DNA of 64,000 nucleotides from Amphiscolops sp. MND2022 (lineage: Eukaryota). Below are positions 38,166-38,501 of this stretch, piece after piece. Positions within the stretch are counted from its first letter, which is position 1. Every line of letters begins with the position of its first letter. The stretch spans positions 67,768,001 through 67,832,000 of the forward strand of contig OZ076409.1 in the NCBI GenBank assembly GCA_964187785.1. The letters are read 5' to 3'. The notes beneath the pieces were generated by a model. The model did no database searches. It saw only the letters and a list, made by a program, of their open reading frames with translations, and was not told where the DNA came from. Position numbers and translations under genes: made by a program.

Positions 38166-38208
38166 GCGCATACGTTATTCTTATATAACTACAACTAACA
38201 CATTTTTG

Positions 38209-38461
38209 TCTCCCATAGCCTAGTGGTTATAGCATTGACTAAAGTTAAGGCTTCGGCCGGAGTGTTTGGGGTTCACTTCTATCCAACGTCCCCCAGTCTT
38301 TGTTACAACTTACATGTTATGGGAGAATAATCACCAATGGCACAGTTCTTAAAAAGGATAATCCCTGCTGTGGAAACTCTTAGTGGAACGGACTCCCGAT
38401 GGGCTTTGAGTTTACCATAGGCATGCCAATGCATATGCTAATGAGCATGCCTATGGGTTTT
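38209..38461 (+). ncRNA. Candidate tRNA-like structured small RNA in the left TIR (core 38209-38326)
   Basis: TTATATAA about 25 nt upstream; A-box TAGCCTAGTGG; 9-bp closing stem TCTCCCATA/TATGGGAGA; GGC-TTCG-GCC hairpin; GGAGTG/CACTTC arm; further hairpins; first T4 run at 38458-38461. Confidence 0.5.
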
Positions 38462-38501
38462 GCGTAGCTTCGCGTATTTTTCAACTTTTTCATCTTAATA
38501 A

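Follow-up and report, generated by a model that had tools for sequence, protein, structure and literature searches.

A candidate Pol III small-RNA gene carried as an accessory by one Polinton clade in Amphiscolops sp.

One clade of Polintons in the genome of Amphiscolops sp. MND2022 carries a conserved, non-coding module that, on balance, appears to be an accessory RNA polymerase III (Pol III) small-RNA gene, with a product that would most plausibly serve as a decoy in trans. We analysed a window of 64,000 nucleotides (contig OZ076409.1, positions 67,768,001 to 67,832,000 of the forward strand), and all coordinates refer to this window. Transcription of the module by Pol III is probable, judged from its promoter-like boxes. 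A decoy role against host dsRNA sensing or RNAi proteins is put forward more tentatively, by analogy with viral RNAs.

The module belongs to an intact Polinton. Excerpts of PMC10748475 give long terminal inverted repeats (TIRs), AG-rich ends and a 5-8-bp target duplication as Polinton criteria, and all three were found in this element. Pfam returned the integrase, packaging ATPase and DJR capsid expected of a Polinton (rve, two A32-like (Pox_A32) matches and PF21738, respectively), with no polB match and no protease match. The element's polB and adenain-like protease are presumably such, named from motifs in the translations (His/Asp/Cys motifs in the case of the protease). The main features of the element are:

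37763..53587, intact Polinton/Maverick, 15.8 kb, with AGTAGTA ends and a 6-bp target-site duplication, GCGGTC
37763..38462, + strand, left TIR, 700 bp, identical to the right TIR, identity stopping at 38462
52888..53587, - strand, right TIR
38502..39326, + strand, ORF1, 274 aa, downstream neighbour of the module at the left end
52386..52805, - strand, ORF of the presumed adenain-like protease, 139 aa, downstream neighbour of the module at the right end

The left TIR also holds a 17-bp tandem array at about 37955-38163. ORF1 had no Pfam match and no Atlas match; 421 homologues were found, and all 120 listed matches are 87-99% identical and unnamed. ORF2 (39330-40028), without a Pfam match, has a long hydrophobic, glycine-rich stretch that suggests a membrane protein. 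A 12-nt GC-rich palindromic unit, seen at 38463-38475 and 45406-45504 and at four other loci, sits at many points of the cassette and between genes, varying from copy to copy, and resembles a small mobile or slippage-prone repeat. Elsewhere in the window, decayed and locally duplicated remnants of another Polinton family occupy 18400-19820, 20700-21570 and 25070-25205 (protease and neighbour genes, about 55-70% at the amino-acid level). Host TRPM-like channel exons (SLOG and TRPM2-like domains) lie upstream of the element at 13867-14472 and 31674-33459. The first 10,000 nucleotides (1-10000) show a strong C-over-G skew and contain an LTR-retrotransposon-type integrase at 1193-2298 and several other ORFs.

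Every motif that the initial annotation had named in the TIR cassette was found where it had been placed. The layout of the module is as follows:

38181..38188, + strand, TATA-like element TTATATAA, about 28 nt upstream of the stem, at the 5' edge of the conserved module
38209..38326, + strand, RNA head, 118 nt, made up of terminal stem, inner helix and apical domain
38209-19/38316-26, + strand, terminal stem, 11 bp, 5' strand TCTCCCATAGC
38216..38226, + strand, A box TAGCCTAGTGG, at tRNA position 8 counted from the stem start
38235-48, proposed anticodon-like arm TTGAC-TAAA-GTTAA
38237-40/38295-98, + strand, inner helix of the head
38249-58, UUCG hairpin GGC-TTCG-GCC
38259-64/38274-79, arm GGAGTG/CACTTC
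38267-71/38291-95, pseudoknot candidate TGGGG/CCCCA
38271..38279, + strand, B-box-like GTTCACTTC, present in every head type 20-50 nt from the A box
38341..38456, + strand, tail A, three hairpins, the last with a loop of variable length
38341-45/38368-72, tail stem CACAG/CTGTG
38374-79/38408-13, tail stem AAACTC/GAGTTT
38415-26/38445-56, tail stem of 12 bp
38458..38461, + strand, T4, candidate Pol III terminator, the first T4 after the start
52888..53169, - strand, second identical module copy, reading inward to the protease gene, head at 53141-53024

The stem closing 38209-38326 is present, with 11 bp rather than the 9 claimed. The first T4 does fall at the TIR boundary (38458-61, with identity ending at 38462), and back-up T5 runs follow beyond the TIR at 38477-81 and 38486-90. 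An RNA of about 118 or 250 nt had been proposed, and the T-run rule gives about 250-270 nt for the window copy. Within the A box, T at 38220 is the commoner allele. The B-like box departs from the B-box consensus at the A58 position, one invariant position. Each TIR holds one A+B box pair, which makes two in the window against 0 in 20 shuffles.

The proposed structured Pol III unit stood as regards its A box, conserved B-like box and covarying stem, and failed as regards its cloverleaf-like fold. ARAGORN predicted 0 tRNA genes, both for the window and for 11 loci. An Rfam search of the cassette gave nothing near the gathering score, with seven weak matches at E <= 10, none of them tRNA or a VA family. 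The change A38238T, which goes together with T38297A (11 of 75 copies), breaks the proposed anticodon stem, and 0/2 shared states keep pairing there. The C(UUCG)G hairpin was not upheld as a conserved loop either, reading UUCA in 24 of the 75 copies. A self-cleaving ribozyme was considered and rejected: Rfam gave no match, and hammerhead, HDV-like and hairpin cores were absent by eye.

Folding of the window copy gave z -3.1 for 38205-38332 and -3.25 for 38335-38465, with 0/200 shuffles as good; the tRNA-like first 82 nt alone gave z -0.65, and the minus strand of the module folds too (z -2.26 and -2.78). Of 53 windows slid along the element, 5 have z <= -3, and folding energy alone therefore proves little. 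Related copies were aligned in 80 rows, after removal of the duplicate in the window and of ten copies that were truncated, carried deletions or were cut by insertions; dropping 5 further copies that were identical once trimmed gave 75 distinct copies. Covariation of the terminal stem, left by the initial annotation as a check, was observed as compensatory changes across these 75 copies, at 38214:38321 (C-G 44/A-U 17/U-G 5), 38215:38320 (A-U 51/G-U 13/G-C 11) and 38217:38318 (G-U 31/A-U 20/G-C 17). The inner helix shows an exchange at 38238:38297 (A-U 60/U-A 11). Over the two helices, pairing is kept in 8/11 lineage-shared states (those present in at least 4 copies) versus 13/45 rare changes (Fisher p 0.013). 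Shared wobbles are G-U on the plus strand (4 in the stem and 2 in the last hairpin, versus 1 C-A in the stem), and the sole shared stem changes of the tail are C-G to U-G, in 24, 19 and 4 of 67 rows. Covariation events are few and linked by descent: the doubly changed pairs number 5, as many as 282/500 shuffles reach; five copies carry a mismatched terminal-stem combination; and RNAalifold retrieved just 7 bp of this stem.

The long rod of the minimum-energy fold is upheld in part only. Its centre (38223-34/38301-13) keeps pairs in 0/4 shared changes, and a long Dicer-type duplex is thus unsupported. Neither the GGAGTG/CACTTC arm, which is fully Watson-Crick in head D (one of the distant head types described below), nor the TGGGG/CCCCA pseudoknot shows lineage-level compensation in the 75 copies. 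An alternative 6-bp helix, 38224-29/38280-85, joins the 3' half of the A box to the bases directly past the B-like box and would cross 38237-40/38295-98. It retains 4-6 of 6 pairs in all 11 head representatives, and 6/6 in head D despite four changes, but the lineage to which the window copy belongs has U opposite U at one position. An interpretation of the terminal stem as a MITE was rejected on the lack of a target duplication and on the G-U bias.

About 500 related sites were found in the genome. The A-box pattern gave 448 exact matches and a variant of it 71, where the reversed controls gave 0 and 1; the A+B pattern gave 541 against 0 for its reversed control. Matches to the window's own A-box allele (55) are mostly inverted pairs about 15 kb apart. 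The A-box region was part of the search pattern, and its invariance among the 75 copies therefore partly reflects selection of loci; the tail was in no search pattern. Among 72 copies examined for context, 64 had direct ORF1, protease or outer-TIR matches, 7 had indirect Polinton signs and 1 was without a call, and no free (non-Polinton) copy was identified.

The initial annotation had described the cassette as built into both TIRs. This holds for the window element and for some subfamilies, whereas among elements without it at the protease end but with it at the other, 6/6 checked have it on the left only. It is missing from 11/20 protease-end stretches; the left end in 7 of those 11 elements carries the module before ORF1 in 6 cases and a remnant only in 1. 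The deletion junction of this remnant has 22 matches, representing an amplified lineage without the module, and one whole element has all genes and the module at neither end. Being left-only in some elements and deleted in an amplified lineage, the module is an accessory Polinton gene, neither a required cis-acting signal nor a free SINE. In 43 loci of more distant families no head was detected by covariance model or relaxed pattern; head D is the sole new item that the covariance model missed. Pattern scans of IMG/VR (2 and 1 matches) and of metagenomes (7 matches) returned chance matches without Polinton genes. Viral contigs scanned with the capsid and polymerase proteins gave no relatives, and these scans thus yielded no homologue in its context from beyond this genome.

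Five more distant head types (D-H) occur in other Polinton lineages. A 5' pattern turned up head D, which is 70% identical and exists as two copies, identical to each other, amid remnants of Polintons. Head E emerged from its likeness to the region upstream of head D, and heads F, G and H from the A+B pattern, these last three all in Polinton ends or remnants; 5 other A+B matches examined were unrelated, and control counts were 0 and 3. These heads retain the TATA, the A box and the GTTCACTYC box at a spacing of 20-50 nt, as well as the terminal stem in all but one. Nine of the 11 head representatives have a TATA-like motif between -27 and -33, and heads D and E keep GTTCACTYC although the B box was absent from the query. 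Boxes kept at variable spacing are the behaviour that would be expected of a type 2 Pol III promoter. Head E, which accounts for 25/41 short-spacing matches, occupies both TIRs of a young family (polymerase 64-74%, capsid 79% identical) in which ORF1 has moved inside. It complicates this simple picture, as its fold is no better than shuffles (z +0.30) and a T4 precedes its B-like box. The fold of head D has z -1.43. A comparison by eye of the terminal stem in E with that in G shows two compensatory pairs; none is evident in F.

The tails differ between heads. Tail A has three hairpins followed by T4 and T5, and tail B repeats hairpins of about 41 nt in tandem, with GNRA in 46/52 loops counted, followed by T5; such an array would suggest multivalent protein binding. 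At five loci with the ~41-nt GNRA array downstream of the head, unit number is variable and G-U pairs are present. Pre-miRNA hairpins are longer than the 30-42 nt of the tail hairpins. Tails E-G have a T5 and an embedded second TATA that leads to a further folded unit of 250 nt with a T4 end. At L267:1626-1908 and five further loci, a G-run and TATATAAG precede this ~250-nt unit and its T4. The unit shows mostly consistent one-sided changes, with z only -0.9 and no Rfam match, and is possibly a second TATA-driven RNA gene. At two loci head G contains, past its GTTCACTCC box, a further B box of canonical form, and it may be the most tRNA-like form.

Alternatively, the boxes could act as DNA, as a TFIIIC/Pol III boundary against host silencing with the RNA as a by-product; tDNA can act as an insulator. 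Across heads A-H the boxes and TATA are the most conserved parts while the fold between them changes, and the module adjoins the element ends and has been duplicated into both TIRs independently of gene order. An insulator is nonetheless unlikely: stems outside the boxes compensate, wobbles show a plus-strand G-U bias and GNRA loops are kept, which argues for selection on the RNA, and the lineage without the module still amplified.

A structured 5' leader, named as the alternative by the initial annotation, would combine a Pol II TATA promoter with translational tuning of ORF1 or the protease. The TATA at -28, the inward reading of both copies, the ORF1 start 40 nt past the T4, and the T4/T5 runs within a longer folded region in head E would all suit a leader. 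This proposal was weakened because the head precedes different genes (ORF1, protease, polymerase, integrase) at distances from tens of nt to about 1 kb. Ten upstream ATGs lie before ORF1, the ORF1 and protease frames stay intact without the module, and a leader has no need of tRNA-spaced A and B boxes. We consider it rather improbable.

A tRNA-derived SINE head captured once and kept as a neutral or selfish passenger, much as in TRIMp3 LTRs with Pol III heads, is a poor fit overall. Over its first 24 nt the module looks like the head of a host tRNA-derived SINE found at four loci, with the A-box region nearly equal and a weak likeness to host tRNA-Lys/Arg 5' halves; the canonical second B box of head G and the deletability of the module point the same way. 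The SINE differs in its canonical B box and unrelated body, and the module covariance model does not match it. At one of the four loci (L132) the A-box head of the SINE is tandemly repeated. Against a passenger, the module is more conserved than neighbouring coding genes: in 9/9 full-length copies for which 300 nt or more of the protease gene could be aligned, identity to the window is 81-96% for the head and 88-100% for the tail versus 72-82% for the protease gene, although recent module exchange could be the source of the higher identity. As Polintons do not replicate through RNA, a Pol III head would bring no gain in mobility. SINE or TRIMp3 membership was rejected, there being no free copies among the 72 examined, no poly(A) and no target duplication. 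Hairpins in ssDNA serving strand-displacement replication, integration or packaging would suit a TIR location and a minus strand that folds, and are very improbable given the G-U bias and GNRA loops, which are RNA features, and the amplified lineages lacking the module at one or both ends.

For the preferred reading, an accessory Pol III small-RNA gene, the following course is proposed. Host TBP and TFIIIC would recognise the upstream TATA and the internal A and B-like boxes. Pol III would start a few bases before the stem and stop at the T run, releasing a folded RNA with paired ends and a predicted length of 120-450 nt across copies; we infer the transcript ends. Since lineages without the module still multiplied, the RNA would act in trans or be conditionally useful, most plausibly as an abundant decoy for dsRNA sensors or RNAi proteins. 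The two-copy state would have arisen by extension of the TIR over a gene normally sited at the left end. Assembled contigs of one RNA run, of low depth and from a mixed sample, include five short ones (1-3 substitutions each) covering 38228-38311 and 38329-38462, of which one starts near 38211 and one reaches the T4; high-identity ORF1 contigs were absent from this run, which we counted neither way. From a second run came a single contig spanning 38227-38427, at 16 differences, together with a fragment of ORF1 at 86%. These contigs are a weak hint only, as they show neither ends nor strand and the library may hold DNA. A decoy is the preferred function by analogy with VA RNA and EBERs and from the Dicer domain and RIG-I C-terminal domain present in the host; a host OAS1_C search gave no match and was uninformative. 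In a search that scored 63 of about 118,000 candidates and returned only Lys and Arg clusters, host genes for tRNA-Lys(TTT) and tRNA-Arg(TCT) were seen to form large tandem arrays in which many variant anticodons occur.

As described in excerpts of PMC7589676 and PMC6599070, VA RNAI/II resemble the module in being small genes on a linear dsDNA element with inverted terminal repeats, with box A within the terminal stem (here 38216-26 overlaps 38209-19), a B-type box further in (here B-like), a T4 terminator, a wobble-rich terminal stem and a suggested tRNA ancestry; one Polinton lineage even has two tandem units. In contrast to VA RNA, the module has no sequence or Rfam match to that family. 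It also lacks the tetrastem, the GGGU/ACCC tetranucleotide pair of the VA central domain given in the excerpted PMC7589676, with no ACCC in 38209-38326. Its B box is deviant, with GTTCACTYC conserved at 20-50 nt, and its first T4 lies at +250, 130 nt past the stem and after extra hairpins, whereas VA RNA is about 160 nt and has its T4 at the 3' end. VA RNA is abundant, made by Pol III and inhibitory to PKR and Dicer; for the module the corresponding data are the contigs of one RNA library, and a like role would rest on analogy. The module further differs in its upstream TATA, in its place in or adjoining the TIR of an integrating element, and in a host not known to have PKR.

TMERs (MHV68) and EBERs (EBV), so far as excerpts of PMC8223928 describe them, share the type 2 Pol III promoter. 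In EBERs a TATA-like box lies upstream as well, and TMERs consist of a tRNA-like head followed by hairpins, which are pre-miRNAs that give miRNAs. Unlike these herpesvirus RNAs, the Polinton module has no cloverleaf, and its tail hairpins (30-42 nt, with GNRA tetraloops in tail B) are short for pre-miRNAs. The nearest transposon precedent in the excerpted literature is TRIMp3 (Cassandra, Helenus, Ajax; PMC10886601), with a small-RNA-derived Pol III head in both terminal repeats. TRIMp3 are non-autonomous LTR retroelements that use the promoter to self-copy and are thought, in those excerpts, to lack a functional RNA, in contrast to an accessory unit of a DNA element with covarying structure. 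On the best reading, the module belongs to none of the VA RNAs, tRNAs and SINEs, yet would function in the manner of viral Pol III small RNAs.

A non-coding RNA of Polintons was, as the initial annotation supposed, not found in a search of freely accessible papers; term look-ups in three Polinton papers likewise found none. To our knowledge, what has been learned of Polintons concerns almost only their proteins, and they have rarely been seen active. The chances seem evenly poised that they possess their own Pol III small-RNA gene family, with a shared promoter-bearing head, interchangeable tails, a GNRA "sponge" and a tandem two-gene version. If true, Polintons would have gained their first non-coding effector, and a transcriptionally active, defence-countering Polinton phase in an animal host would be implied. 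A conserved small-RNA gene would also offer a cheap marker of Polinton activity, since a single northern probe would do, and a way to learn how integrated animal DNA viruses cope with RNAi and dsRNA sensors. The module bears, finally, on the origin of adenovirus VA RNAs, and would suggest that VA-type RNAs are old or have repeatedly evolved in the Polinton-adenovirus group.
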